Below are positions 3 through 47,196 of a stretch of DNA of 64,000 bases, piece by piece. The notes beneath the pieces are model-generated. The model worked only from the letters and a program-made list of their open reading frames with translations, did no database searches and had not been told where the DNA came from. Each line of letters begins with the position of its first letter. Positions within the stretch are counted from its first letter, which is position 1. Position numbers and translations under genes: made by a program. Source of the stretch: an uncultured Methanosarcinales archaeon (GTDB lineage: Archaea; Nanobdellota; Nanobdellia; Woesearchaeales; UBA11576); the NCBI GenBank assembly GCA_964572875.1, contig CAZNGE010000001.1:24834-88833 (forward strand). The letters are read 5' to 3'.

Positions 3-1410
<1,408 letters not shown>

Positions 1411-7790: not shown

Positions 7791-7805
7791 AAATCTCCTA
7801 CAGTG

Positions 7806-9865: not shown

Positions 9866-9902
9866 GAGTTTATCCTCAATAGGTAATCATGAATCCTTTT
9901 CA

Positions 9903-15808: not shown

Positions 15809-16237
15809 ATGCTCCACATCCTGGCATTCGGCAATCCGTACCTAAAAGAGGACAGTCTCGCAGTCAGGGTAGCTGACCTTATCATAGAGGACAAAGTGCC
15901 CGGCATTGAGATAGTGAAATGCATCTCTCCTGACGAGCTGCTGAACTACTTTGACAAGGATTTCGTGATACTCGATGTTGTCAAGGACGCGGATGATGTC
16001 ATGATTATTGATGACATAGAAAGGCTGCAGTCAGGAAAGATAGTATCGCTCCACGACTTTGACCTCGGATTCTTCCTGAAGCTGATGAAGGAGACAGGTA
16101 GGATGGAGAAGATAATGATAATAGGCATCCCTCAGCAGGGCGACATAAAAGAGATTAAAGAGAAAGTCAAGAAAAAGATTCTGGGCCTGCTGGACAGCCT
16201 CAATCCTCCTGCCAGTCCAGCTGCAGGAAATGCGTAG
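15809..16237 (+). CDS. Hydrogenase maturation endopeptidase (HycI/FrhD family)
   Basis: ILAFGNPYLKEDSLAVRVADLI and SLHDFDLG motifs, about 140 aa, adjacent to the second hydrogenase. Confidence 0.75.
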   Translation: MLHILAFGNPYLKEDSLAVRVADLIIEDKVPGIEIVKCISPDELLNYFDKDFVILDVVKDADDVMIIDDIERLQSGKIVSLHDFDLGFFLKLMKETGRMEKIMIIGIPQQGDIKEIKEKVKKKILGLLDSLNPPASPAAGNA

Positions 16238-19808: not shown

Positions 19809-19816
19809 TCGAAAAA

Positions 19817-21064: not shown

Positions 21065-21119
21065 GAAGAGGAAATCAGCCGCAAGGCCTATCGTGAAAAG
21101 GATGGAACGGAGGGAGGCC

Positions 21120-21437
21120 ATGATGAAGAAGAGTGCAAAAAACAAAGAGGAGAGCGCTAAGCGCGTATCATCTAAGAAGGAGGAGATATCCCCTGAGAAA
21201 TATTTCATACTCAAGGACGGGACCCATATCAAGAGCATAAAGGAGCTTGCCATGATGATGGACAGCATGAGCGATGACAGCTTCAGCTTCCACGTCAATG
21301 AGGAGAAGAATGATTTCGCCAACTGGATAAGGGACGTGTTCGGCAAAGAGGATCTTGCTGACTCATTGCTTGCGCTGAAGTGCAGGAAGGAGAACCAGAT
21401 AGCGCTGCTCAAGCATGCGCTGCACGACAGGATATAG
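21120..21437 (+). CDS. Hypothetical basic protein sharing a novel approximately 65-aa domain with the next gene (paralog A)
   Basis: Strong SD GGAGGGAGG before ATG 21120. Domain YFILKDGTHIKSIKEL...FHVNEEKNDFANWIRDV is shared with 21493..22356. Confidence 0.5.
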   Translation: MMKKSAKNKEESAKRVSSKKEEISPEKYFILKDGTHIKSIKELAMMMDSMSDDSFSFHVNEEKNDFANWIRDVFGKEDLADSLLALKCRKENQIALLKHALHDRI

Positions 21438-21492
21438 GATCAATAATATCAGTGATGATATGGAAAAGATAGAGGCAAACAAGGTGCTATAG

Positions 21493-22356
21493 ATGGACGA
21501 CAAGATGACGCTTATGGACGTGGAGAACCTGCTCAAGGATGTGCATCCTGAAAGGGCTTTCGTGCTCAAGGACGGATCCTCGATAAAGAACCTGCAGGAG
21601 CTGTACTCAGTCTTGCAGGGTATGGAGTCGCACGTATTTGAACATCACGTGAATGAGGAGAGGAACGACTTCGGCAACTGGGTGAAGGACGTGCACAAGG
21701 ACTACAGGCTCGCGAACAGCCTGTTCTCTGCAGGCACTAAAGACGAAGCAGTGAAGGCTATAGGCAGCAGGATATACGAGATAGAGAAGAAGATCAGGCC
21801 TGAGAAGAAGGTTGTTCCCGCGTTGCGGCAGAAGCAGCACAGCATGGTGGTTGTCGCACCTCAGAAAGCCGGGCCTGCGCCTGTGAAAGCTGTGGACCTG
21901 CCGGCCAAGGAGGAGAATCCTGTGCTCGAGGACGCAGGAGAACTCGAGAAGAAGGTCATCGTCGAGGCAAAGATAGAGAAGAAGATTGAGAGCAAGTCAG
22001 CAGCCATCAGCGAGGAAGGCGTGTCGAGGAGACTGCCTGACAAGGATGACCCTTGTGAAGAGCTGATAAAGTTCGCAGAGGAGAAAGGATTCGCAGGCAG
22101 GCTTATAGGCGAAGTGACCAGCGTATTCACGCGCCCCGACATCAGGGGTTTCGCCAGTGATATGAAGAAGGTGTTCGCATCGGGAAGCGAAGCTGATGAC
22201 AGCGTCATGGCAGATGGTGCGGATCAGGAAGATGATGATGAAAGCAGCGGGCCGGAACTGTCTGGCGCAGCCGCAGTCAAAGCGATCAAGGCATCTCAGG
22301 GCGATGATGACAAGAAAGATGAGATCTTGTCCTATCTGAAGAAGGTGTACAGATGA
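21493..22356 (+). CDS. Hypothetical protein, paralog B: conserved N-terminal domain plus long acidic predicted-disordered tail, coupled to the MinD-like ATPase
   Basis: AFVLKDGSSIKNLQEL...HHVNEERNDFGNWVKDV domain. Roughly 180 aa D/E-rich tail. Stop overlaps the MinD start (ATGA). Confidence 0.55.
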   Translation: MDDKMTLMDVENLLKDVHPERAFVLKDGSSIKNLQELYSVLQGMESHVFEHHVNEERNDFGNWVKDVHKDYRLANSLFSAGTKDEAVKAIGSRIYEIEKKIRPEKKVVPALRQKQHSMVVVAPQKAGPAPVKAVDLPAKEENPVLEDAGELEKKVIVEAKIEKKIESKSAAISEEGVSRRLPDKDDPCEELIKFAEEKGFAGRLIGEVTSVFTRPDIRGFASDMKKVFASGSEADDSVMADGADQEDDDESSGPELSGAAAVKAIKASQGDDDKKDEILSYLKKVYR

Positions 22357-23138
22357 GCGGCGCAAGAAAGGATTGCAGGGTCATAGGCGTCATCTCCATA
22401 AAGGGTGGAGTGGGCAAGACTACAGTTGTGTCTAATCTCGGCGCAGTGCTTGCCGGCCAGTTCGGCAAGAAGGTGCTGCTCGTGGACGGAAACATGACAG
22501 CGCCCAACCTGGGACTGCACCTGGGGGTCCTGGATTCAGACAAGACCCTGCACGACGTGATATATGACCACGCACCCATAAACGATGCGGTGCTGACATC
22601 AAGCTATGGATTCGATGTCCTGCCGAGCGCATTGGCTCCGAGGAAGAGCCAGCAGAAGCGCATAAACCCGTACAAGCTGCACAACAGGCTCCTGCGAATA
22701 AGGGGTGATTATGATTTCATAGTGATTGACTCGTCGCCGAACCTTAATGATGAGATGCTGTCCGCGATGATAGCCTCAGACGAGCTGGTGGTCGTGACGA
22801 GCCCTGACTACCCGACGCTGAGCTGCACCATGCACGCCATCAAGGTGGCCAAGGAGAGGAAGACACCTATCAAAGGCCTGGTGCTGAACAAGGTGCGGAA
22901 CAGGAGTTTTGAGCTTTCAGTCAAGGACATAGAGGCTGCGACAGGGGTGCCCGTGCTCTCGGTCATAGATGACGACGTGAAGGTGCTGGAAGCGCTCTCG
23001 AAGACGACTCCTGCCTCGCTTGCTGCGCCGAAGAAGGACTTTTCGGTCGCGTACTGCTCTCTCGCAGCGAAGCTTGCAGGCGAGGAATACAGGGACCCGC
23101 GATTCATGTCGAGAGTGGCGTCCATCTTCAGAAGATAG
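22353..23138 (+). CDS. MinD/ParA-family P-loop ATPase (deviant Walker A)
   Basis: GVISIKGGVGKTTVVSNLG (KGGxGKT) motif. 261 aa. Confidence 0.85.
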   Translation: MSGARKDCRVIGVISIKGGVGKTTVVSNLGAVLAGQFGKKVLLVDGNMTAPNLGLHLGVLDSDKTLHDVIYDHAPINDAVLTSSYGFDVLPSALAPRKSQQKRINPYKLHNRLLRIRGDYDFIVIDSSPNLNDEMLSAMIASDELVVVTSPDYPTLSCTMHAIKVAKERKTPIKGLVLNKVRNRSFELSVKDIEAATGVPVLSVIDDDVKVLEALSKTTPASLAAPKKDFSVAYCSLAAKLAGEEYRDPRFMSRVASIFRR

Positions 23139-23200
23139 GATATCATAGGATCATAGTCTCAACTCAGAAAGAAAAGTACTCATCTGTATCCGTTGGGGGA

Positions 23201-25042
23201 ATGATTTTGGAAGAAAAAAGAGGTGAACATAGAGAACCTAAGGCAGATTTCCTGTTCGAGGTATCCTGGGAAGTATGCAACAAGGTCGGCGGCATAAACA
23301 CGGTCATAAAGAGCAAGATACCGCAGACAGTCAGCAGGTACGGGGACAAGTACTGCCTTGTAGGGCCCTATTTCCATGACAAGGTCAAGGGCGAGTTCGA
23401 GGAGCTCGTGCTGCCCGAAGAGTACAGGGAAGGCAGCGAGGCGCTGAAGGGCATAGGCATAGTGCCCCACTACGGCAAGTGGCTCACAGAAGGGTCTCCC
23501 AACACTCTGCTTCTTGATTTCCAGCCGTTCTTTGAGAGGAAAGATGAGGTGAAGAAGAAGCTGTGGGACATGTACAAGATAGATTCGCTCAACTCCTCGA
23601 ACGAGTTCGACGAGCCCGCCGTGTGGGGCTGGGCCGTCGGGATAATAATCGAGAGTTTCTTCAATAGGTACAACGCGGAATGGAAGATTGCCACCGTGTT
23701 CCACGAGTGGCTTTCAGGCGCAGGGATACTCTACCTGAAATCCCAGAAGTGCAGGATAGCAACTATATTCATAACGCACGCCACTGTCATGGGCAGGTGC
23801 CTGGCGAATGCAGGAGTGGACCTGTACCAGCGTGACGGAGAGGACAAGCTCCTGCTCGATAGGATGGATTTCGATAAGGAGGCGTATGACCGCCACATGC
23901 AATCGAAGCACCAGCTCGAGAAAGCCAGCGCAAACGCCACGGATGTCTTCGCGACGGTCTCGGAGATAACCGGGATGGAGGCAGAGCACGTGCTGAGGAA
24001 GAAGCCGGACCTGCTTGTGCCGAACGGCCTCAACCTTGACGATTTCCCGACGGTAGAGGAGAACTCAATCAAGCACAGGATATTCAGGGACAAGATATAC
24101 CATTTCCTGCTCTATTATTTCTTCCCTTACTACCACCTCGACATAGACAACACGCTGATCTACTTCATAGCGAGCAGGTACGAGATGAGGGACAAGGGCA
24201 TTGACATATTCATAAAGGCCTTGAGCAGGCTCAACCAGAAGCTCAAGGAGGAAAGGTCCAAGAAGAGCATCGTTACGTTCTTCTGGGTGCCTTCAGGAGT
24301 GAGAGGCGTCAAGCAGGAGATCGTAGAGAACAAGACCATGTTCAAGGATGTCGAGGACAGCCTGAAGGACAATTCAGAGCATGTCATGTGGCGCCTGCTG
24401 AGCACTTTCGTCGGCGACAAGCCGATAATAAAGGAGACCATATTCGACAAGGCGTTCCTGGCAGACATAAAGAAGAAAGTGATGAAGTTCAAGAGGGAAG
24501 AGACCGCACCTCCGATATGCACCCATGATCTCATAGACCATAATGATGAGATAACGCGCAGCCTCTCTGAGGAAGGCCTCCTGAACTCGAGAGAGGACAA
24601 GGTAAAGGTGATATTCTATCCGATATACCTGACAGGCGCTGACGGGCTTCTCGACCTGACATACTATGAGGCAATACAGGGCGCGCATCTCGGCGTGTTC
24701 CCCTCATTCTACGAGCCTTGGGGATACACCCCTCTGGAGGCAGGAGCGCTCGGGGTCGCATCGATAACGACAGACCTTGCGGGATTCGGGAAATACATTG
24801 AAGGGAAGACTGACGAGAAGTGTCTTGGCATCTGCGTCCTGAAGAGGCTGGGCAGGCCGGACGCGGAAGTGATAGACGCGCTGTATGACAGGTTATACAC
24901 GTACGCAGAGATGCCGAAGAAGAATCGTGTCGACAACAAGCTTGAGGCCAGGAAAATGGCCAGCCTTGCGGACTGGGACAGCCTGATACTGAATTACTTC
25001 AACGCTGAGGATATGGCTATAGACAGGGTATTCAGCGGATGA
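23201..25042 (+). CDS. Glycogen synthase, eukaryote-type (GT3 family)
   Basis: FLFEVSWEVCNKVGGINTVIKSK N-terminus (the LFEVAWEVANKVGGIYTV signature of GT3 glycogen synthases). 613 aa. Confidence 0.85.
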   Translation: MILEEKRGEHREPKADFLFEVSWEVCNKVGGINTVIKSKIPQTVSRYGDKYCLVGPYFHDKVKGEFEELVLPEEYREGSEALKGIGIVPHYGKWLTEGSPNTLLLDFQPFFERKDEVKKKLWDMYKIDSLNSSNEFDEPAVWGWAVGIIIESFFNRYNAEWKIATVFHEWLSGAGILYLKSQKCRIATIFITHATVMGRCLANAGVDLYQRDGEDKLLLDRMDFDKEAYDRHMQSKHQLEKASANATDVFATVSEITGMEAEHVLRKKPDLLVPNGLNLDDFPTVEENSIKHRIFRDKIYHFLLYYFFPYYHLDIDNTLIYFIASRYEMRDKGIDIFIKALSRLNQKLKEERSKKSIVTFFWVPSGVRGVKQEIVENKTMFKDVEDSLKDNSEHVMWRLLSTFVGDKPIIKETIFDKAFLADIKKKVMKFKREETAPPICTHDLIDHNDEITRSLSEEGLLNSREDKVKVIFYPIYLTGADGLLDLTYYEAIQGAHLGVFPSFYEPWGYTPLEAGALGVASITTDLAGFGKYIEGKTDEKCLGICVLKRLGRPDAEVIDALYDRLYTYAEMPKKNRVDNKLEARKMASLADWDSLILNYFNAEDMAIDRVFSG

Positions 25043-25070
25043 GGATATGTTTAGGTAAGGAGATGCTAAA

Positions 25071-26033
25071 ATGGAGCTGAGAAAAGATTACATCCTTGAC
25101 AGGTGGGTCATCATAGCCACCGGAAGAGGGAAGAGGCCCCACGAGTTCAAGACCGAGGATGACATATATGCTGATGATAAGGGTCCTGAGAAATGCTTCT
25201 TCTGCCCTGGCAACGAGTCCATGACCCCTCCTGAAATAGGCAGGGTGAAGGACGACAAGGGCGGATGGAAGCTGCGCTGGTTCGCGAACAAGTTCGCTGC
25301 TGTCGACAAGAGCGGCGACGCCAGTATCAAGACAGACAACAATTTCTTCACATACTCTGACGCATATGGGAACCATGAGGTCATTGTCGAGACTCCTGAC
25401 CACATGAAGCAGATGATAGACCTTAATGAAAAGGAGATAATGGACCTGCTGAAAGTATACGCACGTCGCATAGACGTGCTGATAAACGAGCCTAACATTA
25501 AGTACGTGTGCGTTTTCAAGAATGAAGGTAAGAAGGCAGGCACATCAATCGTGCATTCGCACAGCCAGCTGATATCGCTCAACACTGTGCCGACAGAGGT
25601 CACAGCGAAGATAGAGGCTGCAAAAAGGTTCCCTTCATGCCCTTACTGCGACATAATCAAGACAGAGGCAAAGGGCCACCGGCATGTCCACGAGGACGAC
25701 ACGACTGTGACGTTCACGCCTTACGCTTCAAGGTTCAACTTCGAGGTCTGGATATTCCCGAAGAACCATTACAAGACCCTGAGAGACTTCTCTGATGACG
25801 AGATGTTCGACCTTGCGGCTGCTATGAAACGGGTGCTGAAAAAGCTGAAGGACCTTAACGCCAACTTCAACATGGTGATGTACTATGCGCCCAAAGGCGA
25901 GGACCTGCACTTCCATATAGAGTTCCTGCCCCGCATCGCGACATGGGCAGGGTTTGAGCTGGAGTCAGGGGTCACGATCAACGTCGTGAGCCCTGAGGAC
26001 GCGGCCCTGTTTTATAAGGGCGAGCATAAATAA
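25071..26033 (+). CDS. Galactose-1-phosphate uridylyltransferase-family (GalT/HIT) nucleotidyltransferase
   Basis: CFFCPGNE zinc site and HSHSQ (HxHxQ) active site. 320 aa. Confidence 0.8.
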   Translation: MELRKDYILDRWVIIATGRGKRPHEFKTEDDIYADDKGPEKCFFCPGNESMTPPEIGRVKDDKGGWKLRWFANKFAAVDKSGDASIKTDNNFFTYSDAYGNHEVIVETPDHMKQMIDLNEKEIMDLLKVYARRIDVLINEPNIKYVCVFKNEGKKAGTSIVHSHSQLISLNTVPTEVTAKIEAAKRFPSCPYCDIIKTEAKGHRHVHEDDTTVTFTPYASRFNFEVWIFPKNHYKTLRDFSDDEMFDLAAAMKRVLKKLKDLNANFNMVMYYAPKGEDLHFHIEFLPRIATWAGFELESGVTINVVSPEDAALFYKGEHK

Positions 26034-26071
26034 TAAAAATCCCCCACACCCAGCCAATACTGGTGATAATC

Positions 26072-27448
26072 ATGACGGTGAACGAAAAGATATTCAAAGC
26101 TTATGATATACGGGCAGTTTATCCTGATGAGATAGACGAGGATGCAGCATACATCATAGGACGGGCGTTCGTGACATTCCTTGGCTGTAAGGAAGTTGTT
26201 GTGGGCCAGGACATGCGCAGCAGCTCCCCTTCGCTTTTCGATGCCCTCGCCAGAGGGATAACTGACCAGGGAGCCGATGTCATAGACATAGGGAAGAGCA
26301 GCACCCCTTTCTTCTACTTCGGTACTGCAGGCCACGAGGCAGGTATCATGGTCACTGCTTCCCACAATCCCGCCAAGTACAACGGCTTCAAGATGTGCAG
26401 GGACGGCACAGTGCCTATCGGAGGGGACAGCGGCATGCAGGAGATAAAGGCCCTTGCGGTTGCTGGCGGGTTCAAGGATACTGAAACAAAGGGAAGCATC
26501 AGAAAGAAAGACATAACAGATGATTTCATCACGCACAACCTCAAGTTCCTGGACAGCAGCTTGTCAGGAAAGAATCTGAAGATAGTGGTCGATACCGGCA
26601 ACGGCATGGGAGGCTACACATTCCCGAAGGTATTCGAGAGGGTCGAGAACATAGAGGTTGTCCCTCTCTACTTTGACGTAGACATGACATTCCCTAACCA
26701 CGAGGCGAACCCGATAAAGCCTGAGAACGTGAAGGACCTCCAGGAAGCTGTCATCAGTAACAATGCTGACTTCGGCGCTGCGATAGACGGTGACTGCGAC
26801 AGGTGCTTCTTCGTGGATGAGAAAGGGGATGTAGTCACTGCTGACCTTATAACAGCCCTGCTCGCGAAAGAGCTTCTCAAGGACAATCCCGGAGCAAGGA
26901 TACTCTATGATCTCAGGTCAAGCTGGGCCACAAAGGAGGTCATCGAGGAGAACGGCGGAAAGCCGGGCATGTGCCGCGTCGGCCACGCGTTCATAAAGAA
27001 GCAGATGAGGGAAGAGGACGCCCTGTTCGCAGGAGAGCTATCAGGTCATCTCTATTACCGGGACTCATTCGTCACAGAGAGCTCGATAATATCCACTCTG
27101 CTTATAATCAACCTGATACGAAAAGAGGGCAAGGCATTGTCCGAGCTCGTAAAGCCGATAAAGAGGTATTTTCCCAGCGGAGAGATAAATTCAGAGGTCG
27201 GGGACAAGGAAGGCAAGATGAAGGAGCTCGAGGGGATGTTCAGGGCGGAGGCGAAGGTCACTTCGCATCTCGACGGGATAAAGCTTGAGTTCGACGATTG
27301 GTGGTTCAATGTGCGCGCCTCGAACACAGAGCCCCTGCTGAGGCTGAACCTCGAGGCCAAGACGGAAAAGAGGATGGAGGAGATGCGTGACAGGATCGTC
27401 GCGATAATCCGCAGAAAAAGAGATGAAGATATCACACAAGCTTCCTAG
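26072..27448 (+). CDS. Phosphoglucomutase/phosphomannomutase (alpha-D-phosphohexomutase)
   Basis: TASHNPAKYNGFK phosphoserine loop, GDCDR and GELSGH motifs. ATG 26072 with GGTGAT RBS. Track start 26063 is GTG. Confidence 0.88.
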   Translation: MTVNEKIFKAYDIRAVYPDEIDEDAAYIIGRAFVTFLGCKEVVVGQDMRSSSPSLFDALARGITDQGADVIDIGKSSTPFFYFGTAGHEAGIMVTASHNPAKYNGFKMCRDGTVPIGGDSGMQEIKALAVAGGFKDTETKGSIRKKDITDDFITHNLKFLDSSLSGKNLKIVVDTGNGMGGYTFPKVFERVENIEVVPLYFDVDMTFPNHEANPIKPENVKDLQEAVISNNADFGAAIDGDCDRCFFVDEKGDVVTADLITALLAKELLKDNPGARILYDLRSSWATKEVIEENGGKPGMCRVGHAFIKKQMREEDALFAGELSGHLYYRDSFVTESSIISTLLIINLIRKEGKALSELVKPIKRYFPSGEINSEVGDKEGKMKELEGMFRAEAKVTSHLDGIKLEFDDWWFNVRASNTEPLLRLNLEAKTEKRMEEMRDRIVAIIRRKRDEDITQAS

Positions 27449-29252
27449 ACTGGGCATAAGCAGGGACGGCTGCGACGCGGATGTCTGCGTCCTTGCGAAT
27501 AATCTGGGCAGTTTCCTTTTCTTATCTCCTTCATCGATATCCAAGTTCAACGGTTTCTTCACGAACTACGGGCTTAAGCTGTACAAGACGGTGCAGAACA
27601 TAGGTCTTCTCGACCAGGCGCCTGTCGAGATGGAGAACAGCCTGACGGCGATAAGCAGGAGGTATCCTGGAAACTCTGAAAGGATAGTATGCCCTGACAG
27701 CATACAGGGCTTGATATACACCTTGTCCAAGAAAGGGAGCATATTCATGGACTTCGACTTCCGCAAGATGGATGACATGAGGTCGTTCGGGAGGATATAT
27801 GAGGTAACGCAGGAAGACGGCAGGATACTGGTCGAATTCACCAAGATGACCGACGAGAGGGAGGACAGCACAGACGGGGTCGCTGAGTTCAGCTTCTTTG
27901 CGGCGATACAGCCTAAGGGGTTCAGCCCACAGACAGACTATAAGTTCATAGACTATTGGCTTGAGAGCGATTACAGGTATGACAGGGAGAGGAAAGACCC
28001 TCCTGACAGGAGATATGTCTACAGGCCTTTCATGATAAAGGCGAAGCAGCTCCTGATCGGCGTCGGCAAGACAAAGGCGGATGCGATTGCAGAGCTCGAT
28101 AAACTGAAGAAGTTCAAGGCAGGAAAGAAGGATTATAAGACGATAGACAAGAAGAAGGATGCTGAGGCCGCTGCCGCTTTCATCTGCGCCCAGGAGTCGC
28201 TTGAGAAGATGAAGTCAGAGGACATCGACGGCACGACGAGGCTGTACGCAGGCTATCCCTGGTTCTTCCAGTTCTGGTCAAGGGATGAGAACGTTTCCCT
28301 TGGCGCGCTCATGAAGCTGAAGCAGTTCAGGACAGTGAAGGGCATACTTTTCAAGTACCTTAAGAACATCGGCAAGGACGGCAGGCTCGCCAACCGCGTG
28401 CCATCGTCGCATCTCGGCTCTGCAGACGGTGTGGGGTGGTTCTGGAAACGTATCGGAGATTTCATCGCAGCACTCAAGGAGCTGCACCTGCGCGAGAAAT
28501 ACCTGTCGCCCAAGGAGATGAAGGACATAAGGGACTCTCTGGCGGACTCGATAAGAAAGATAGAGAAGAACTACAAGTCAGGCGGTCTCATAACGAACAA
28601 GGACAATGAGACCTGGATGGACACCGACCCTGGCGGCCAGGACCCGCGCGACGGGAAGAGGATCGAGGTGCAGGCCCTGCATCTCAACATGCTCAGGCTG
28701 ATGCATGAGCTCAGCGGCGACATGAGATACAAGACAAAGGAGACGAAGATGAGGAAGGAAGTGATAAAGGGCTTCTGGAACGGGAAGCTGATAGCTGACG
28801 GTGTGGATGATTATACTATAAGGCCGAATATTTTCATAGCGTATTACGTTTATCCTGACCTGCTCCCGAGGAGAGAGTGGCAGACATGCTTTGAGAACGC
28901 ACTGAAGAAGATCTGGCTGGACTGGGGTGGCCTTTCATCCATAGACAAGGGCAATCCCCTCTTCACGCCGGAATATACAGGAATGGATGACAGGAGCTAT
29001 CACCGCGGGGACTCATGGTACTGGATAAACAACCTTGCTGCGATATGCATGTTCAGGAACAATGCTATTGAGTTTGAAGGAAGGATAAAACAGATAATCA
29101 AGGCAAGCTCTGAGGAGATACTCTGGCACGGCGCGATAGGGGACCATGCAGAGATAAGCTCTGCCTCGCATCTTTCGTCGAAAGGGTGCTTTGCGCAGGC
29201 ATGGAGCGCTGCCATTTTCATTGAGCTGATGATGGAGACGATGGGAGGATGA
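27423..29252 (+). CDS. Glycogen debranching enzyme / amylo-alpha-1,6-glucosidase family (GDE C-terminal (alpha/alpha)6 domain)
   Basis: GYPWFFQFWSRDENVSLGAL (the GYPWF..GRDT-type motif of this family) and C-terminal GDSWYWINNL. 5' end overlaps pgm by 26 nt, so the true start is uncertain. Confidence 0.72.
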   Translation: MKISHKLPRLGISRDGCDADVCVLANNLGSFLFLSPSSISKFNGFFTNYGLKLYKTVQNIGLLDQAPVEMENSLTAISRRYPGNSERIVCPDSIQGLIYTLSKKGSIFMDFDFRKMDDMRSFGRIYEVTQEDGRILVEFTKMTDEREDSTDGVAEFSFFAAIQPKGFSPQTDYKFIDYWLESDYRYDRERKDPPDRRYVYRPFMIKAKQLLIGVGKTKADAIAELDKLKKFKAGKKDYKTIDKKKDAEAAAAFICAQESLEKMKSEDIDGTTRLYAGYPWFFQFWSRDENVSLGALMKLKQFRTVKGILFKYLKNIGKDGRLANRVPSSHLGSADGVGWFWKRIGDFIAALKELHLREKYLSPKEMKDIRDSLADSIRKIEKNYKSGGLITNKDNETWMDTDPGGQDPRDGKRIEVQALHLNMLRLMHELSGDMRYKTKETKMRKEVIKGFWNGKLIADGVDDYTIRPNIFIAYYVYPDLLPRREWQTCFENALKKIWLDWGGLSSIDKGNPLFTPEYTGMDDRSYHRGDSWYWINNLAAICMFRNNAIEFEGRIKQIIKASSEEILWHGAIGDHAEISSASHLSSKGCFAQAWSAAIFIELMMETMGG

Positions 29253-30145
29253 AACAGGACGATAACATGGAATACGCGATAGCTTTGGATGTCGGGGGAA
29301 GCAAGATGACCACCTGCCTCGTGGACGAGACAGGGAAGATAATCGACGGTGAGCGCCGGCTGACCGATGCCCCTGAAGGCAGGAGGAAGGTGCTGTTAAA
29401 CATAATATCAGAGATAAAGAAGATGATGGACAAGCACAAGGACATCAGCGTGAAAGGGATAGGCATAGGCATGCCAGGATTCATAGACAGCAAAGGGAAA
29501 GTGGTGTTCATGCCCAATGTTCCGCTTGTCGGGTTCAACATAGTGAATAAGCTCAATAAGAGGTTCAAGTGCCCCGTTGCTGTAGAAAATGACGCGAACT
29601 GCTTTGCGCTCGGTGAATACTCTTTCGGCAGGCACAAGTCAAAGGTCCTGCTCGGCCTCATAGTAGGCACAGGCGTGGGCTGCGGGATAGTATCAAACGG
29701 AAAGCTGATATCAGGTTGCGGAGGCGGCGCAGGGGAGATAGGCCACAACCTGCTTGACAATTCCACAGATAAGCTTGTTGTCAAGAAGAATGATTTCGAG
29801 TCTGTGTGCTCAGGCCCTAACATCAGCAGGCGGTACTCTGAAGCAGGAGGAAAAGACACTATCCCGAAACAGGTATTCGCGGCAAAGGATCATGCAGCTA
29901 GGAAGGTGATAGATGATGAGTACAACTGTCTGGGCAAGTTGTTGGGATCCATGGTCAATACACTGAACCCGGACACCATAGTCCTGGGAGGCAGCGTGAG
30001 CAAGTCGCTGAAACCAGGACGGCTAAGGAAGGAGATCGTGAAATACTCCATACCTTTCTCTGCAAAGCTGGTCAAGGTCAAGCAGAGCAGGCTTGATGAC
30101 ATAGCCGGTGTGCTTGGCGCTGCAGCCTTGATATTCGAGCAGTAG
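29249..30145 (+). CDS. ROK-family sugar kinase (glucokinase-like)
   Basis: ALDVGGSKMT N-terminal ATP motif and GxGxGxG plus CxCGxxGC ROK zinc motif (CSGPN..). Start 29249 or 29267. Confidence 0.8.
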   Translation: MKQDDNMEYAIALDVGGSKMTTCLVDETGKIIDGERRLTDAPEGRRKVLLNIISEIKKMMDKHKDISVKGIGIGMPGFIDSKGKVVFMPNVPLVGFNIVNKLNKRFKCPVAVENDANCFALGEYSFGRHKSKVLLGLIVGTGVGCGIVSNGKLISGCGGGAGEIGHNLLDNSTDKLVVKKNDFESVCSGPNISRRYSEAGGKDTIPKQVFAAKDHAARKVIDDEYNCLGKLLGSMVNTLNPDTIVLGGSVSKSLKPGRLRKEIVKYSIPFSAKLVKVKQSRLDDIAGVLGAAALIFEQ

Positions 30146-30295
30146 GGAGGCTCTAGAGCCATGATTCTGCAGTCTCATCTGCCAGGATTACCCATCCCCA
30201 GACCTTCTGTTACCACTTAACAGAGACAACAAAACGAAACATTTATATATTAGTTCTGAACCTTATATCATTAGTTGGTTGGAGGTGGCTGAGAG

Positions 30296-30928
30296 ATGTA
30301 CTTACCTGACAAGATAGAGAAAAGCATTTCTAGGCTGGAGAGGCTTGCTGATAAAGGCGGGTTTGATGACGATCTATATCTGAGTACAGCTGAGCAATGC
30401 AGCTACATTGATGGAGATGAGACAAAGAGGATGTACACTAGGATGCTCGACCTTCTTGTCGCGCTTTCAAGCTCTGTCAGGCTCGGATTTCATGATACTG
30501 CTGAAGGCATAAGGCTGCTTTACAATGCAGAGTGCGGCGGCAAGTTCAAGATAGACACCGATAGGGCGTTCTCAATCCTTGAAGAGGCGGCATTCACAGG
30601 AAAGTGGAGTGGAAGCCTGCAGGAGTGCATCACCAAGACCCTGAATCTGGATGACCATGCCAAGATGGATTACAGGACCAGGCGAAACAGGGACAGGATG
30701 CATGACCTGACAACAGCATATTCGCTGCTCCTCGCTTCAAAGGATGACAGCTCCCTGAACGCCAGGGCGCTGGTCGCGATGAGGGTGTATGTCGACAGCA
30801 ACCCCTCATCCAAGGATTTCCTTCCTGACGACCTGCGGGCAAGGGTGTTCCCTGAAGAGTTCATGAAGGCAAATGAAGGCAAACGACAGACAGAAAATAG
30901 TCTGAACAAAGATAGAGGTGCGCAATAA
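30296..30928 (+). CDS. Hypothetical protein
   Basis: GGAGGTG RBS. 210 aa. No recognisable motifs. Stop overlaps the start of the next gene. Confidence 0.45.
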   Translation: MYLPDKIEKSISRLERLADKGGFDDDLYLSTAEQCSYIDGDETKRMYTRMLDLLVALSSSVRLGFHDTAEGIRLLYNAECGGKFKIDTDRAFSILEEAAFTGKWSGSLQECITKTLNLDDHAKMDYRTRRNRDRMHDLTTAYSLLLASKDDSSLNARALVAMRVYVDSNPSSKDFLPDDLRARVFPEEFMKANEGKRQTENSLNKDRGAQ

Positions 30929-31935
30929 TGATCCAGAAATCAATACACATACTCACGCAGCTCCAGCATCCGAAAGGCCTGTTCGTGGCTGCGCTTGACA
31001 AGAGCACGCACTACTCAAGGCAGGCATGGATCCGCGACAACATCTACGCGAGCCTCGGCTTCGAGGCGGTTAAGAGGCATAAGGAGGTCGTGAAGGCATA
31101 CCAGGCATTGCTTGACGTGCTGAAGAAGCACGAGTACAAGATAGACTGGGCGATCGTCGAGAAGCCGCAGCATCGCTGGCAGTACATCCACGCACGGTTC
31201 GACCCTGAGACATTCGATGAGTTCCAGGAGGACTGGGGCAACAAGCAGAACGACGCCATCGGAGCTTTGCTCTTCAAGATAGGCGACCTCGAGTCCAAAG
31301 GCATAAGGGTCATACGTGACAAGGATGACGAGCGCATAATCCAGAAGCTCGTATATTATCTTAACTCAATACAATATTGGCATGACAAGGACAGCGGCAT
31401 GTGGGAGGAGAACGAGGAAGTGCATGCTTCCTCTGTCGGAGCATGCGTAGCTGGCCTCAAGAAGATATCCAAGATAGTTGATGTTCCTCAAGTTCTCATA
31501 CAGAAAGGTGAGGAAACCTTGAACCAACTCTTGCCAAGGGAATCTGACAGCAAAGACACAGACCTTGCGCTTCTGTCGCTGATCTACCCGTACAACGTGG
31601 TTTCAGATGAGCAGAGGATGCAGATACTCCAGGATGTTGAGAGAAAGCTTGTCAGGCAGCGCGGAGTGATCCGTTACGCAGCCGACTTCTATTTTAACAG
31701 GAATGGAGAAGCAGAATGGACATTCGGATTCCCTTGGCTTGCAATCATCTACAAGCAGCTGAACAGACCTGACAAGGCAGCGTTCTACATGCGCAAGACC
31801 CTTGAGGTCGTCAACAAAGCAGGCGAGCTCCCTGAGCTCTACTACGCCAACACCGACGAGCACAACGAGAACACTCCGTTGGGATGGGGCCAGAGCCTGA
31901 TGGTTGTGGCGATGACCAAGAACCAGACAGCGTAA
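30928..31935 (+). CDS. GH15-like (glucoamylase/glucodextranase family) glycoside hydrolase catalytic domain
   Basis: QAWIRDNIYA (the W-x-R-D motif), GMWEENEEVH (the LWEE general-acid region), GWGQSL. Roughly 335 aa (alpha/alpha)6-like. Confidence 0.6.
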   Translation: MIQKSIHILTQLQHPKGLFVAALDKSTHYSRQAWIRDNIYASLGFEAVKRHKEVVKAYQALLDVLKKHEYKIDWAIVEKPQHRWQYIHARFDPETFDEFQEDWGNKQNDAIGALLFKIGDLESKGIRVIRDKDDERIIQKLVYYLNSIQYWHDKDSGMWEENEEVHASSVGACVAGLKKISKIVDVPQVLIQKGEETLNQLLPRESDSKDTDLALLSLIYPYNVVSDEQRMQILQDVERKLVRQRGVIRYAADFYFNRNGEAEWTFGFPWLAIIYKQLNRPDKAAFYMRKTLEVVNKAGELPELYYANTDEHNENTPLGWGQSLMVVAMTKNQTA

Positions 31936-31939
31936 TAAG

Positions 31940-33772
31940 ATGAACCTCGAACATATCGCAGAACAGATGAGAATCAAAGGATTGACTAGACAGGCAACCC
32001 TTCTTGAGACAAGGGCAGGGCCTGTGTATCTTCTTACATTGCTACAGAAAAGATGGGAGCAGAAAGTCGTTGATTCCATCGGAGAAGATGCTTTCTATGA
32101 GCTGACTGCAGAATTCATCAGGAACCTCGGGCTTTTGAAAATAAAGAACGCTCTGGACGATTGCGAGACATTCACGCCAAAGGAAGTCGGGATGAATCCT
32201 CTTGAGATAGAGGTCAAAGGCAATGTGGATACGAAAAGCGTAAGGAAGGCAGGAAAGATATATGATGAGCTGGAAAGGCTTGCTTCCGAAGGGTCGATAA
32301 TCATAGCCAGCGAGCTTAAAGAGAGAATCTATGACGACGAGGACATGATCTACAGGATATACAAGGACTCTGACAGTTCTTACGAGTCGAGGGATTTTTT
32401 CTACAACGCATTGTTCAACAGGACAGAAAGATGCAAACGTATGTTTGACATGGACGCTCCCACAGATATTTTGGTTGACCAGATAAGGATAGTGAATGAC
32501 CTGACCGGCCCGGGAGACGCAGGATCAAGGAGAGCATTCAAGGAGCTTGAAGCCTGCTGCAGGGAGATGAAAGACGCTGGCAATGAAGACATGCACCGCT
32601 TGAAGGGAATCTTTGAAGAATCATCCTCAACAATCATCGGGATTGCCGAGAGTGTGTTGAGGTCTGAACAGCAGGATCCTGGTTCGAATGATCATCTTTT
32701 CAGTTCATGGATAGCTGAGAGGAAAAGGACTGCCAGGGAAAGGGTAATAGATAATGAAAGGAGATTGATGGATTTTGAACCTGACCCGCTAGAACGGGAA
32801 TTCATGAGGAATTCAAGTGACGAGCTGATAGTCGAGGCATTTCTTGAGAATGAATTGCTCTCCGAGGCGGCATACGAGGAGAATTCTGACACCGACAGGC
32901 TGGTAGGGATATTGATGAAAAGCCCGATACAATGCAGGCAGTATTTCATTGACATGCGCAATTCATTCCTTAACAGGTTCAGGAACGCATCGATAGGTTT
33001 CAAGCAGATCCTTGAAGGAGGACCGGTGACGAATCCTGAAGCAACTGAAGTTTCCAGTATGCAGAACCATGCAGGTTTTGCCAACATAAAGTATTCTGAT
33101 GATACAAAACAGGAGCTTGAGAGGATTGTAGAGCAGATGGACGAGCTGTTCAGGCAGCTGCCGGACATCTCAGCCCTTCCCACACCCTCAAAGCTCAAGA
33201 GGAAGAGACACCTCAAATACATCATGGAAGAGATGCCGAAAGACCCGACAGACATCACGTTCGGTAATGACTCTGGCTGCTGTATATTCGTTGATGAGGA
33301 CAGGGAAAAGATCCATAACGGAACTTTTGTCCCTGCTTACCTGCTACATCCGGAAGTGAGGATTTTCGGCCTGTACCGTGTCGAAGGAGATAAGAGGCAG
33401 AGGATGGGTATGGTTCTGGCCTTCGAGACAGGATATGAAGACAACAGGGAAGGCAAGGTCCTGGCGTGCAACAGCCTGGAGCTTTCAAGGCTCGGCATTG
33501 CAGGAGGCAATGAGACTGTTGAGAAGCTTGTTGATTATGCTGAGGACTGGCTCGCAGCCTATGCCAAGGAGAACGGCTATGATGGCGCTTGCATGGGTAG
33601 GCACAGCTATAACACTTCTGTGAATTACAGCTCGAAGACAGGCGAGACCGTAGATGAAACCCTAACATTCAGGAATTTTCCTCTTATGTTCTACAGCGAC
33701 ATACTGCAGACCAGGGACGAGCATTCTATGGCCACAAGGGATGATTCCTGCTACTGGCTCTGGAGAAAGTGA
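31940..33772 (+). CDS. Large hypothetical protein (610 aa), orphan
   Basis: Long coherent ORF with no recognisable family. Followed after 33 nt by the archaemetzincin-like gene. Confidence 0.55.
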   Translation: MNLEHIAEQMRIKGLTRQATLLETRAGPVYLLTLLQKRWEQKVVDSIGEDAFYELTAEFIRNLGLLKIKNALDDCETFTPKEVGMNPLEIEVKGNVDTKSVRKAGKIYDELERLASEGSIIIASELKERIYDDEDMIYRIYKDSDSSYESRDFFYNALFNRTERCKRMFDMDAPTDILVDQIRIVNDLTGPGDAGSRRAFKELEACCREMKDAGNEDMHRLKGIFEESSSTIIGIAESVLRSEQQDPGSNDHLFSSWIAERKRTARERVIDNERRLMDFEPDPLEREFMRNSSDELIVEAFLENELLSEAAYEENSDTDRLVGILMKSPIQCRQYFIDMRNSFLNRFRNASIGFKQILEGGPVTNPEATEVSSMQNHAGFANIKYSDDTKQELERIVEQMDELFRQLPDISALPTPSKLKRKRHLKYIMEEMPKDPTDITFGNDSGCCIFVDEDREKIHNGTFVPAYLLHPEVRIFGLYRVEGDKRQRMGMVLAFETGYEDNREGKVLACNSLELSRLGIAGGNETVEKLVDYAEDWLAAYAKENGYDGACMGRHSYNTSVNYSSKTGETVDETLTFRNFPLMFYSDILQTRDEHSMATRDDSCYWLWRK

Positions 33773-39829: not shown

Positions 39830-41281
39830 CTAATAGCTCTTGCTGAAATAGATGTTCCACTTCGCGTCCTTGCCGCAGTGCACGCACTTGCTGCCTTCAG
39901 GTGCATGTGGATTGTCCATCGGTATGCATCTTGAGGTGGCTCCGCCTGTCTTGTCCTTTATCAAGTCCTCGCATTCCGGCTCCCCGCAGAACACGGTCTT
40001 GACAAGCTTACGTTCTTTTATCGCCTGGACAAGTGCGTCCATGTCCGCGACCTCGACTATGCTTTTCTCCAGGTTCTGCTTCGCCTTCTCGAAAAGCCTG
40101 TTCTGCATCTGCTGCAATAGCTCCGGCACTGCTGCCTTGAGGTCGTGGACCTTGATGAACTGCTTCTCTCCTGTGTCGCGTACTACCGCGGTGACCTGGT
40201 CTGCCTCCATGTCCTTGGGCCCGAACTCGAGCCTCAACGGCACTCCCTTGAGCTCCCATTCATTGAACTTCCATCCAGGGCTGTAATCCTCCCTGTCGTC
40301 AAGCACCGCGTCGAAATCCTTGAGCAGCTCCTTGATCTCCTGGCACTTGTGCAGCACCTTGTCCATGGTCTCCTCGAAGAGGATAGGGACTATCACTACC
40401 TTATTCGGCGCCATGCTTGGCGGCAGCACAAGGCCTTTGTTGTCTGAGTGCTGCATTATGGTCGTGCCTATCAGCCTTGTTGATATCCCCCAGCTCGACT
40501 GCCAGGGCAGCTTCTGCTCCCCGTCCTTATCCTGGAAGCTCAGCCCGAACGCTTCAGCAAATCCCTGGCCGAGGTTATGGCTTGTGCCGCACTGTATCGC
40601 TTTTCCGTCCGGCATGAATGCCTCGATGGTCATTGTGTATTTCGCTCCTGCGAACTTCTCCTTGTCTGTCTTCTTTCCGTATATGACGGGCACTGCAAGG
40701 AGCTTCTCTGCGAGGTCCTTGTATTCCATCAGGAACAGCTCGACCTCCCTGTCGCAGTCTGCCTCTGTCTCGTAGACGCAGTGGCCTTCCTGCCATAGGA
40801 ACTCCCTGCTTCTCAGGAACAGTTTTGTCGCCTGGGTCTCCCACCTTACGACATTGGCCCATTGGTTTATGCGGATCGGCAGGTCTCTCCAGCTCCTCAG
40901 CCATCTTGAGTATGAATCATACATTATGGTTTCAGAAGTGGGCCTTATGGCAAGCCTTTCGCTGCCTTCCTCATCCCTGTTGGCGATCCACGCAACCTCT
41001 GGAGAGAATCCTTCTGCGTGCTTCGCCTCCTTGTGGAAGAATGATTCGGGTATGAACAGCGGGAAGTATGCGTTCTGCACGCCCCTGTACTTCATGCGCC
41101 TGTTGAAGTATTCCTGTATCTTCTCCCACATCGCATAGCCAAGCGGCCTGAGTATATAGCACCCTTTCACAGGCGCGTAGTCCGCAACCTCAGACTTGAG
41201 GCATACCTGCTGGTACCACTCTGCCATGTCTTCTTCCTTCTTGACGGTTATGCCAAGCTGCTTTTCCTTCTCATCTGCCAT
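39830..41281 (-). CDS. proS: Prolyl-tRNA synthetase, archaeal/eukaryotic type
   Basis: 483 aa. Class II motifs and a C-terminal zinc-binding domain (CGEPECE...CVHCG). Confidence 0.9.
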   Translation of the reverse strand: MADEKEKQLGITVKKEEDMAEWYQQVCLKSEVADYAPVKGCYILRPLGYAMWEKIQEYFNRRMKYRGVQNAYFPLFIPESFFHKEAKHAEGFSPEVAWIANRDEEGSERLAIRPTSETIMYDSYSRWLRSWRDLPIRINQWANVVRWETQATKLFLRSREFLWQEGHCVYETEADCDREVELFLMEYKDLAEKLLAVPVIYGKKTDKEKFAGAKYTMTIEAFMPDGKAIQCGTSHNLGQGFAEAFGLSFQDKDGEQKLPWQSSWGISTRLIGTTIMQHSDNKGLVLPPSMAPNKVVIVPILFEETMDKVLHKCQEIKELLKDFDAVLDDREDYSPGWKFNEWELKGVPLRLEFGPKDMEADQVTAVVRDTGEKQFIKVHDLKAAVPELLQQMQNRLFEKAKQNLEKSIVEVADMDALVQAIKERKLVKTVFCGEPECEDLIKDKTGGATSRCIPMDNPHAPEGSKCVHCGKDAKWNIYFSKSY

Positions 41282-44896: not shown

Positions 44897-46003
44897 TTAT
44901 CCTGAGCTTATCTCGTACCGCAGTATCGCGGCGACCTTTCCGAGGTCGCGCAATTGCACGCCTTCACGGGTCTCTTCAGATATTATCCTGACAGAGCTCC
45001 CGACATTCTCTGCCTCTTTCTCGAACTCCTCTATCTCTGAATCCTCGAGGGATTCCGACAGCAATAAGATGTCGACAGTGCCCATCTTCAGCACTTCCAT
45101 GACCTGCGCCTTGCCGTAGCTCACCATGCCGGGCTTTGTGGCCAGGAGAGTGAGGAACTTGCTGACTATCTGCTTCTCCTGCGATACCTCTTCTGCGGCG
45201 AGGATGTCCTCGCTCTTCTCCAGCAGTTCCTGCAGTCCGAACTCTTCTGTGTATGACAGGTCTTTTGTGCCGATGATCTTCTTCTTGAGCTCTCCTGTCA
45301 GGTAATCATATCCTATGAAGTCGTTTATCGTGACTCCGGGACCGCCGATTATTATCCCTTTCAGCCCTTCGAGTTTCAGGAACTCGTTTTTCATGTATTC
45401 TGCGATCTTCTTGTAGTGCTCTTTAGTAGCACCCTCACGAAGACGCGCGAACCTCAATGCTGACTGTCCGCCTGCCTTCATCTTGCCAGGCACTTCTGAG
45501 TGTGTCTTTCGGATGGGTATGATGGTCTTTCCCTTGAGCAGCGCGAGCATCGCGTCTCTCCGGTCCAGCACAACAAGCCCGTACACTTCCTTGGATTCCA
45601 TCATCTCCCTGAGCGGGCCAAGGATGAATGTCTTGTCGCACCTGTATGTCCTGAAGTTCATGGGCACTGGCGGCACTATGCTCCATACCTTGATGTCTGT
45701 CTGCCCTTCTTTCTCAGACACATTGCCTGAGAACACTGCAAGCCCGTTCGGAGGGGTCTGCTTGAACAGCTTGAGGTGCTGCAGCATCTTCTCCAGCGCT
45801 CCGATCACGTTCTCCCTTGTCTGCTTGCTCTTGATGTTTGAGGCTGTGCCCTGCTCATCTGACAGGTGCTTGTTTATCAGGTTCAGGTCATATCCTGCTG
45901 GAACGTACACTGAGACAAGCTCGGTATGTCTACCTCGATGCTTTTCCAGCTCTTTCACGAACTTCCTGAGATGGAATTTCTCAATCGCTGTAATCGATGC
46001 CAT
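44897..46003 (-). CDS. prf1: Peptide chain release factor aRF1
   Basis: NIKS (SNIKSKQTR) and GGQ (KMKAGGQSALRF) motifs. Confidence 0.88.
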   Translation of the reverse strand: MASITAIEKFHLRKFVKELEKHRGRHTELVSVYVPAGYDLNLINKHLSDEQGTASNIKSKQTRENVIGALEKMLQHLKLFKQTPPNGLAVFSGNVSEKEGQTDIKVWSIVPPVPMNFRTYRCDKTFILGPLREMMESKEVYGLVVLDRRDAMLALLKGKTIIPIRKTHSEVPGKMKAGGQSALRFARLREGATKEHYKKIAEYMKNEFLKLEGLKGIIIGGPGVTINDFIGYDYLTGELKKKIIGTKDLSYTEEFGLQELLEKSEDILAAEEVSQEKQIVSKFLTLLATKPGMVSYGKAQVMEVLKMGTVDILLLSESLEDSEIEEFEKEAENVGSSVRIISEETREGVQLRDLGKVAAILRYEISSG

Positions 46004-46322
46004 GCAGAATCAGAAAAATCGTTAATATATAAAATGTAGGCAAAAGCAACAACTACTGCAATAAGTGCCGCTACAGCAGCTCCACGACCGTAGCCGCCAA
46101 TGAGCACGCTACCGGCTTAACACATAGAATCAATAAACATTAGAGCTGCTCAAAGACTCGCGTAAATCGAGTCTTTGGCATCCTAAAATGCTGCGCATTT
46201 TATGACTTCGGCAAATTCAACGATAGTAAGAATCAGGCGTGCGGGGCGGCACGGGAGCTTTTGCAAGGCAAAAGCGGAGTAGGGCGTGGGGCTGCTGACT
46301 TCGTGAAACAAGCAACCTAACA

Positions 46323-46330
46323 TTTAAATA
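46323..46330 (+). promoter_or_regulatory. TATA box (tttaaata) about 27 nt upstream of the tRNA-Pro 5' end
   Basis: Archaeal promoters place TATA about -27 from the TSS. tRNA begins 46358. Confidence 0.4.
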
Positions 46331-46357
46331 CCCCCTTTAAATCCTTTTTCGCACATT

Positions 46358-46491
46358 GGGGCTATGGTGTAGCTTGGACCACGCCAACCAGAGGTTGCGT
46401 CGGAGCAACTATCATCCGTGGTTTGGGGCCATGAGACCCCGGTTCGAAATATCAAATGCTTGCATTTGAGGCGAATGTCCGGGTAGCCCCA
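46358..46491 (+). tRNA. tRNA-Pro (anticodon UGG) containing two non-canonical introns (about 33 nt between positions 26/27 and about 29 nt in the T-loop at 59/60)
   Basis: Acceptor GGGGCTA/TAGCCCC plus discriminator A. D-arm TGGTGTAGCTTGGACCAC. Anticodon arm CGTGG-TTTGGGG-CCATG (46417..46433). T-stem CCCGG (46438..46442) / CCGGG (46479..46483), and excising 46449..46477 restores the TTCGAAT T-loop. Exon lengths sum to exactly 72 nt. Confidence 0.6.
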
Positions 46492-46556
46492 TGTGAGAAC
46501 GGCAAAATCCCAGACGACTGCAGTGAGTCTGGAGTTTACCGTTTTACATGCTTAAA

Positions 46557-46591
46557 AATGCCGATGACTGGAAGGAGTCGGCATTTTTCTT
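46557..46591 (+). terminator. Hairpin (ATGCCGA...TCGGCAT) followed by TTTTT, likely terminating the tRNA-Pro transcript
   Basis: 7-bp perfect stem then T5 at 46586..46590. Confidence 0.4.
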
Positions 46592-46725
46592 GCATGCTAT
46601 ATTACATTCAAGCAAACTTTATAAACAAACAAAAACTGCTACAATATCTGCTTTTAAAGGCTTAAACAGGCTTTTTAAGACAGAAAAGGCTTTAAAAAAC
46701 TTAATATGACAATTCAAGGGTTAAA

Positions 46726-47196
46726 ATGGCTAAAAAAGTAAAATTAGGTTCTACTAACCGGTATGGCGCCCGTTATGGTGCGAGGAACAAAGAGAAAGTT
46801 GCAGCTTTGGAGAAACAGCACAGGAGAAGGCGCAAATGCCCGTTTTGCAATTATGTCAAGGTCAGACGAGTATCTGCAGGCATCTGGCAGTGCGAGAAAT
46901 GCAATGCCAAGTTTGCTGGAAAGGCTTACACATTCGTCACGCCAAAGGCTTCCAAGGAGATAGTCAAGGAAGAGCCTGAGGAAGCTGAAGAGATAGAGAG
47001 CATTGAAGAACAGGAAGAGACGCCTGAAGAAGAGCAGCCAGAGGAAGATCAGGAAGAGAAGACAGAGGCTGCTGAGGAAGAATCTGCAGACGAACCTGAC
47101 GAAGAGCTCCAAGATGAGGAGATACAGGAAGAAGAGATACCCATTGAAGAGACAGATGAAGATCAGAAGCCGGCAGACCAGCCAGAGGTAGCCTAA
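46726..47196 (+). CDS. rpl37ae: Ribosomal protein L37ae with a 65-aa Glu-rich C-terminal extension
   Basis: N-terminal 90 aa match L37ae including the CPFC...CEKC zinc ribbon. The tail EEPEEAEEIESIEEQEETPEEEQPEED... is extra. Confidence 0.85.
   Translation: MAKKVKLGSTNRYGARYGARNKEKVAALEKQHRRRRKCPFCNYVKVRRVSAGIWQCEKCNAKFAGKAYTFVTPKASKEIVKEEPEEAEEIESIEEQEETPEEEQPEEDQEEKTEAAEEESADEPDEELQDEEIQEEEIPIEETDEDQKPADQPEVA

Follow-up and report, generated by a model that had tools for sequence, protein, structure and literature searches.

The 134 nt at positions 46358-46491 on the plus strand of the window (the whole 64,000-nt stretch of DNA that was analysed) hold a tRNA-Pro(UGG) gene interrupted by two introns of the bulge-helix-bulge (BHB) type. 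We read the locus, with a probability of about 0.88, as a functional, cis-interrupted gene of a DPANN (Woesearchaeota-like) archaeon, from which two EndA-type BHB introns would be spliced. The analysis established the exon-intron structure, the BHB geometry with its conservation and covariation, the cloverleaf, and the orthology with intron-free tRNA-Pro genes. An earlier description of the locus, hereafter the initial annotation, is partly confirmed in its observation and partly supported in its interpretation: two introns at non-canonical positions and an archaeal origin were borne out, while the first intron and the sum of the exons had to be revised.

A proline tRNA gene masked by two insertions

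The locus reads, in order, GGGGCTATGGTGTAGCTTGG ACCACG...GAGCAA CTATCATCCGTGGTTTGGGGCCATGAGACCCCGGTTCGAA ATATC...GAATG TCCGGGTAGCCCCA. ARAGORN, run on the 64-kb window by default and with its -i option for anticodon-loop introns, reported 0 tRNA genes. Likewise, Rfam gave no tRNA match at the gathering threshold in the 64-kb window, and at E <= 10 on positions 46000-46900 it returned no tRNA and only spurious weak sRNA matches. When both segments that had initially been marked as introns were excised in silico, ARAGORN called the 72-nt product tRNA-Pro(tgg), while excision of either segment alone gave no tRNA. The locus is therefore a proline tRNA only after two excisions, in agreement with the original claim that all elements of a tRNA-Pro(UGG), including the anticodon TGG at 46424-46426, come together in these 134 nt after two removals only. 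A genome annotated with ARAGORN or the Rfam tRNA model would thus seem to be without tRNA-Pro(UGG), and gaps of this kind in the apparent tRNA sets of DPANN genomes have been pointed out before (PMC5829648). As ARAGORN (with or without -i) and Rfam detect zero tRNAs in the window (1-64000) and the one gene examined is masked by introns, further disrupted tRNA genes could lie hidden there.

The corrected anatomy of the gene is given in Table 1. The three exons (20 + 40 + 14 nt) make a mature RNA of 74 nt, discriminator A73 included, and not the 72 nt summed at first. Its predicted junctions are ...AGCUUGG^CUAUCAU... for intron 1 and ...GGUUCGAA^UCCGGG... for intron 2, and ARAGORN called this three-exon spliced product tRNA-Pro(tgg). 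The 74-nt product has cloverleaf stems of 7/4/5/5 bp, and U8, A14, G18, G19, A21, U54, U55, C56, and A58 are all present. The D arm is GUGU / AGCUUGGCUA / UCAU, in which G10-U25 represents the commonest state among the homologues and pair 13:22 is U-U, as it is in most homologues. The anticodon loop UUUGGGG occupies 46422-46428, with U33 preceding the anticodon UGG and G37 at 46427. Position 26 of the mature tRNA is C; at this position of archaeal tRNAs, G is commoner than C. CCA is absent from the gene, the bases after A73 being TGTGAG.

Table 1. Elements of the interrupted tRNA-Pro(UGG) gene in the window, and tRNA-Pro(UGG) copies at the syntenic loci
Feature	Position	Strand	Description
TATA-like box TTTAAATA	46323-46330	+	-35 to -28 relative to the 5' end of the tRNA; read from the sequence
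Exon 1	46358-46377	+	20 nt; acceptor 5' strand, U8, G9, D-stem 5' strand GUGU, D-loop AGCUUGG to G19
Intron 1	46378-46408	+	31 nt; D-loop, between G19 and C20 (19/20)
Exon 2, part a	46409-46448	+	40 nt; C20 U20a A21, D-stem 3' strand UCAU, C26, anticodon arm
Exon 2, part b	within 46409-46448	+	4-nt variable loop, T-stem 5' strand, T-loop UUCGAA to position 59
Intron 2	46449-46477	+	29 nt; T-loop 59/60 (A59 / U60)
Exon 3	46478-46491	+	14 nt; U60, T-stem 3' strand, acceptor 3' strand, discriminator A73
Window copy	46358-46491	+	insertions after AGCTTGG (19/20) and 59/60
L001 copy	3306-3430	-	insertions 37/38 and 59/60 only
L002 copy	4682-4839	-	insertions after AGCTTGG (19/20), 37/38, and 59/60
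L004 copy	about 5714-5877	-	insertions after AGCTTGG (19/20), 37/38, and 59/60
L011 copy		-	insertions 37/38 and 59/60 only
L007 copy	926-999	-	no insertion (ARAGORN)
L009 copy	3183-3257	-	no insertion (ARAGORN); Rfam tRNA 57.2 bits

Upstream of the gene, the TATA-like box TTTAAATA is found at the same distance in the related loci L001 and L002. It falls in the zone from -38 to -32 in which the upstream DNA of 115 metagenomic tRNA-Pro genes is enriched in TATA-like motifs, so a role of TTTAAATA as an archaeal promoter is probable.

Directly 3' of the tRNA, at 46492-46595 (+), lie two tandem hairpins, each followed by a T-run and each having a tandem G-A mismatch core (GAYGA...GAGTC). Their sequence and position are kept in L001 and L002 and not in more distant syntenic loci. 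An assignment to H/ACA or C/D sRNAs was rejected (no conserved ACA box, no 3-nt K-turn bulge, and no Rfam match), as was a dispersed repeat, given that the other matches to the pattern lie in coding DNA without a hairpin; the two hairpins may be tRNA terminators or a small structured RNA. Farther downstream, an ORF of 156 aa (46726-47196, +) carries a ribosomal protein L37ae domain confined to residues 5-76, followed by a long C-terminal extension. The conserved start MAKKVKLGS suggests that its true start would be near 46746, and the TATA box CTTTATAAAC (about 46617-46626) is conserved, being shared, like the leader, with L001 and L002.

Placement of the two introns

Archaeal tRNA introns are defined by the BHB motif. 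All junction pairs within the locus were scanned for its geometry, namely an outer helix, a 4-bp central helix, two opposite-strand 3-nt bulges each cut two bases in, and an inner helix. At intron 2, the central helix UUCG (46443-46446) / CGAA (46472-46475) is flanked by the bulges AA|A (46447-46449) and UG|U (46476-46478); the 5-bp T stem serves as the outer helix, and 8/9 pairs form in the inner helix, which is capped by the loop CUUG. This near-perfect BHB upholds the 29-nt second intron as originally placed at T-loop position 59/60, the removal of which recreates TTCGAAT. At intron 1, the 31-nt segment is cut after ...AGCUUGG (G19) and the exon resumes at CUAUCAUC; its central helix, GCUU (46372-46375) / GAGC (46403-46406), has 4/4 pairs, with the bulges GG|A (46376-46378) and AA|C (46407-46409), an outer helix of 3 bp, and an inner helix of 5/6 pairs with one C-C mismatch, followed by a small hairpin. 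The two junctions have BHB scores of 4/3/3 and 4/4/3, the motif of intron 1 being the weaker. Both are full BHBs by the thresholds H = 4, h >= 3, and h' >= 3, a level reached by only 3-4% of shuffled-intron controls even with boundary freedom allowed. The two motifs are near-strict hBHBh', and in principle an EndA of narrow specificity could cut both. The simpler statistic of H = 4 after boundary refinement was discarded because 65-79% of shuffled controls pass it when given +/-2-3 nt of freedom, which leaves the full motif as the one informative criterion.

When the locus was scanned blind and by itself, the 59/60 junction tied for the top BHB score, while about a dozen other junction pairs equalled the D-loop junction at 10/12. 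The motif alone is therefore insufficient to place intron 1, for which the comparative evidence is decisive. In the folding analysis, the T-loop BHB lay within the minimum-free-energy (MFE) fold and the D-loop central helix within the centroid fold. The D-loop BHB was outside the MFE fold, a competing register being better by about 5 kcal/mol, and a fold constrained to both BHBs lay 5 kcal/mol above the MFE.

For the comparison, the adjacent eRF1-like gene (44897-46003, minus strand) was used as the query and retrieved 19 related loci, and metagenomic sequences, scanned for the shared pattern of the 5' exon, added 120 loci, 114 of them with a complete gene. Together with seven syntenic copies (window included), these 114 gave a comparative series of 121 tRNA-Pro genes having from zero to three or more insertions, of which 56 are intron-free. 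A profile HMM built solely from 48 distinct intron-free tRNA-Pro genes matched the 74-nt spliced product with 69.6 bits (E = 2.5e-23), and the exons of the window gene score as well as intron-free orthologues. In addition, a global alignment blind to the BHB, with the nearest intron-free homologue (L121) as the reference, placed the window insertions at precursor nt 21-51 and 92-120, the same boundaries as selected by the BHB, and 66/74 aligned positions match between L121 and the product.

L002, L004, and 15 metagenomic genes share the site and motif of the D-loop intron, and the 59/60 insertion is present in 25 of the 121 genes. Across intron 1, the D-stem pair 11:24 is paired in 18/18 genes (13 T-A and 5 G-C). 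The central helices that join exon and intron covary at both sites: GCTT is found with GAGC, AAGC, or GAGT and GTTT with GAAC in the D-loop, and TTCA/TGAA (11 genes) is set against TTCG/CGAA (5 genes) in the T-loop. Full BHBs were identified for 9/18 D-loop and 14/25 T-loop introns, compared with 3-4% of the controls having shuffled intron interiors. Some metagenomic genes have anticodon-loop introns with automated boundaries off by a few bases and odd ARAGORN calls, and these were excluded from the covariation set. When the cloverleaf was imposed on 20 spliced or intron-free copies, 95.7% of the cells were paired and 10/21 pairs had compensatory changes, while in slid-register controls 37-55% were paired.

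These comparisons decide against the first junction of the initial annotation, by which a 33-nt intron 1 would separate positions 26 and 27, with CCAC (46379-46382) as the D-stem 3' strand and the G at 46383 as G26. The 72-nt product of this model, which differs from that of the D-loop model by only about 8 nt, is also accepted by ARAGORN as tRNA-Pro(tgg), and it would have the more usual G10-C25 and G26; even so, we regard the 26/27 junction as highly improbable. Its central helix, ACCA versus AUCA, has 0/4 pairs and so makes no BHB, and the junction is missing from the scan list of pairs with H >= 3; the flanks CCACG/CGTGG, taken at first for a BHB-like motif, are an ordinary helix closing a loop. 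Of the two junctions first proposed, the one at 59/60 has a BHB and the one at 26/27 lacks it; the D-loop junction at 19/20 has 4/4 pairs. Neither does the BHB-blind alignment to intron-free homologues select the 26/27 junction, and the model scores 59.1 bits against the intron-free profile, versus 69.6 bits for the D-loop model. It further leaves one base between G19 and the D stem, where every homologue has 3-6, A21 included. Among the 17 further genes interrupted here, the D-stem 5' strand does not pair with the bases that begin the intron, and read in this way, nt 11:24 are scattered non-pairs. Hence, CCAC and the supposed G26 are really the first bases of intron 1, and the BHB, the blind alignment, the profile, and the covariation agree on a first intron of 31 nt after G19. 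A different exon structure was the outcome that the initial annotation had itself named as counting against it, and for the first half of its model this is what was found. The case illustrates that a plausible, hand-built exon model can satisfy a tRNA finder and yet be wrong, and that placing non-canonical introns needs the BHB register together with a comparison of orthologues.

The same evidence bears on whether the locus could be a decaying tRNA pseudogene that suffered two random insertions and stays unspliced, the tRNA-Pro(UGG) being supplied by another gene. The failure of standard tRNA finders and Rfam to see the locus would fit such decay. We consider it very unlikely, since the exons are intact and score equally with intron-free orthologues, both insertions lie in conserved and covarying BHB motifs, and many lineages have insertions at these same sites, with intron interiors that diverge and exons that remain constant; the promoter box is conserved with relatives and the syntenic position is kept as well.

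The wider series of tRNA-Pro genes displayed further kinds of insertion. Some of the 59/60 introns in the metagenomic genes L071, L115, L093, L041, L039, and L023 are very long, ranging from 89 to 233 nt. The T-loop intron of L115 contains three tandem copies of a unit of ~38 nt, and those of L041 and L071 have common modules such as TGGTTACGCTC...TTGA; there may be something embedded or proliferating inside these long introns. In the tRNA-Pro genes L088, L136, L091, and L122, an insertion was observed ~6 nt upstream of site 59/60, where the T-loop begins or close to that point (53/54-like), and all three that were scored had a 4/4 central helix.

Predicted processing and intron turnover

Following what is known of archaeal tRNA splicing, from which transcription, EndA cleavage, ligation, CCA addition, and ProRS charging are taken over, the functional gene would be processed in the following way. 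A precursor of roughly 140 nt would be transcribed, probably driven by the TATA box that lies some 30 nt upstream, and each insertion with its flanking exon bases would fold into a BHB having a 4-bp helix and two opposite-strand 3-nt bulges. The archaeal tRNA-splicing endonuclease EndA would then cut two bases into each bulge, releasing 31 nt from the D-loop (G19/C20) and 29 nt from the T-loop (A59/U60). A ligase of the RtcB type would link the three exons, of 20 + 40 + 14 nt, to give a tRNA of 74 nt, to which CCA would be added after ligation and which ProRS would charge with proline.

In the window, Pfam identified neither EndA nor RtcB among 54 ORFs (five large ORFs lay outside the scan), and a tblastn search of the window and 141 loci with an approximate EndA probe sequence gave no EndA. 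The ProRS gene that had been noted ~5 kb away was verified by its Pfam match at 39830-41281 on the minus strand, that is, about 5 kb from the tRNA and on the opposite strand, and there is no evidence that its proximity to the tRNA-Pro gene is more than coincidence.

Removal by something other than EndA, or tolerance of the insertions, for instance by self-splicing or by their retention as expansion segments in a longer tRNA, is the least probable of the readings weighed here. Nothing positive speaks for it, EndA having gone undetected within the window. With 29-31 nt, the insertions are far below the size of group I or II introns, and they carry the exact motif recognised by EndA, with conservation of the cleavage register. 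The bases G18 G19 and U54-C56, which contribute to the D-loop/T-loop tertiary interaction in tRNA structure, flank the insertions, and retention would destroy this contact.

Among the loci retrieved with the eRF1-like gene, L001 is the most closely related (86% identity in this gene), and L002 has 79%. A tRNA-Pro(UGG) gene lies beside the eRF1-like gene in six relatives (Table 1), and these orthologous copies, with that of the window, have 0, 2, or 3 introns in varying combinations of the sites 19/20, 37/38, and 59/60. The 59/60 insertion is found in all four intron-bearing syntenic relatives (L001, L002, L004, and L011), and L002 and L004 resume after their D-loop insertion as CTATCCTC and CTATCAT, respectively. 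L001, the closest relative found, is without the D-loop intron and has a canonical 37/38 intron that is absent from the window. This distribution indicates rapid intron gain or loss among orthologues, and orthologues with 14-21% divergence in the neighbouring protein already differ in which of the three sites are occupied. Because it changes so quickly among orthologues, intron content is a poor fine-scale taxonomic marker. The multi-intron pattern, first put forward as useful for taxonomy, is accordingly weak in that role, seeing that a relative with 86% identity carries another intron set and that the host is of the DPANN and not of the Thermoproteales.

All 19 loci with the eRF1-like gene come from DPANN-type MAGs, titled Woesearchaeota, Nanoarchaeota, and in some cases 'uncultured Methanosarcinales'. 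Judged by its neighbouring genes, the window belongs in DPANN (Woesearchaeota-like) and not in Thermoproteales. The records of L002, L003, L005, L009, L013, and L019 are titled 'uncultured Methanosarcinales archaeon' and their listed neighbours are Woesearchaeota or Nanoarchaeota; these titles look like mislabels. As to the history of the two introns, we tentatively suggest, at somewhat less than even odds, that the 19/20 and 59/60 introns of tRNA-Pro are old and mostly vertically inherited in a Woesearchaeota-like DPANN clade, in which they would be quickly lost and regained. If this is true, one orthologous gene would provide a natural series for measuring the turnover of tRNA introns and how it co-evolves with the unusual endonucleases of DPANN, and the catalogue of positions at which introns are permitted would gain 19/20.

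Two other features of these contigs were recorded. In L012, an inverted repeat, AGAGGGATTTGAAC ... GTTCAAATCCCTCT, with ~34 nt between its arms, is located at about 690-800 on the reverse strand beside the eRF1-like gene; it resembles a T-arm and its complement and could be a tRNA gene remnant or an unusual arrangement. In the window itself, genes for the large and small subunits of NiFe-hydrogenase come in two sets (6510-10880 and 16200-18273, both on the minus strand), one of them with NAD-binding and 4Fe-4S partners, and there is a series of glycogen/sugar genes at 18573-33772 (+), including GT4/starch-synthase-like, GH57, GalT-like, PGM, ROK kinase, and GH15 genes. This gene content points to a metabolism fairly rich for a DPANN-type genome.

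Comparison with known interrupted tRNAs

Genes of this kind are already known, and the locus leaves the mechanism of such introns unchanged. Position 59/60 and sites in the D-loop are known positions of archaeal BHB introns (PMC4090602), and there is ample documentation of archaeal tRNAs with multiple introns and of non-canonical sites, 59/60, 20/21, and 22/23 among them (PMC4090602, PMC4033280, PMC8450103). The multiple-intron tRNA genes of Thermoproteales (Pyrobaculum, Caldivirga, and Thermofilum) were described by Sugahara et al. 2008 and reviewed since (PMC4090602, PMC4033280, PMC8450103). The window gene resembles them in being cis-interrupted by short, non-canonical BHB introns (up to three in Thermoproteales) of the EndA type and in being missed by ordinary finders. 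It differs in its host, which is DPANN (Woesearchaeota-like) and not Crenarchaeota, in its D-loop site, which lies directly after G19 (19/20) and not at the 20/21 or 22/23 listed for Thermoproteales, and in its motifs, both of which are near-strict hBHBh', whereas relaxed forms are common in that order.

The pre-tRNA-Glu(UUC) of Methanopyrus kandleri, with a D-loop intron and a canonical intron, was cut in vitro by archaeal EndA (PMC5829648). Similar to the window gene, it combines a D-loop intron of the BHB type with a second intron in one tRNA. However, its D-loop intron has the relaxed form HBh' with the 3' exon starting at A21 (20/21), and its second intron is the canonical 37/38; in the window gene, no intron breaks the anticodon loop, and the second one lies in the T-loop.

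Closer to the host, increased disruption of tRNA genes has been reported for DPANN lineages, a Woesearchaeota genome included (PMC5829648). An alpha4 EndA with an L3 loop occurs in several DPANN lineages, including a Woesearchaeota genome, and the extra L3 loop has been linked to more tRNA disruption (PMC5829648), while ARMAN-1/2 have an epsilon2 EndA (PMC3239211, PMC3488258). Sets of DPANN tRNAs were found to be incomplete, probably through undetected disrupted genes (PMC5829648); the window locus, from the same superphylum, is one such undetected gene. Its architecture, with a D-loop and a T-loop intron in tRNA-Pro, is not described in PMC3239211, PMC3488258, or PMC5829648. The split tRNAs of Nanoarchaeum equitans likewise belong to DPANN, and there the tRNA halves are joined at BHB-like motifs by EndA and a ligase; unlike these trans-spliced halves, the exons in the window are contiguous, on one strand, and in one transcription unit (cis). 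To these systems, the locus adds a clear case, outside Crenarchaeota, of one tRNA in which the D-loop and the T-loop each carry a near-strict BHB intron.
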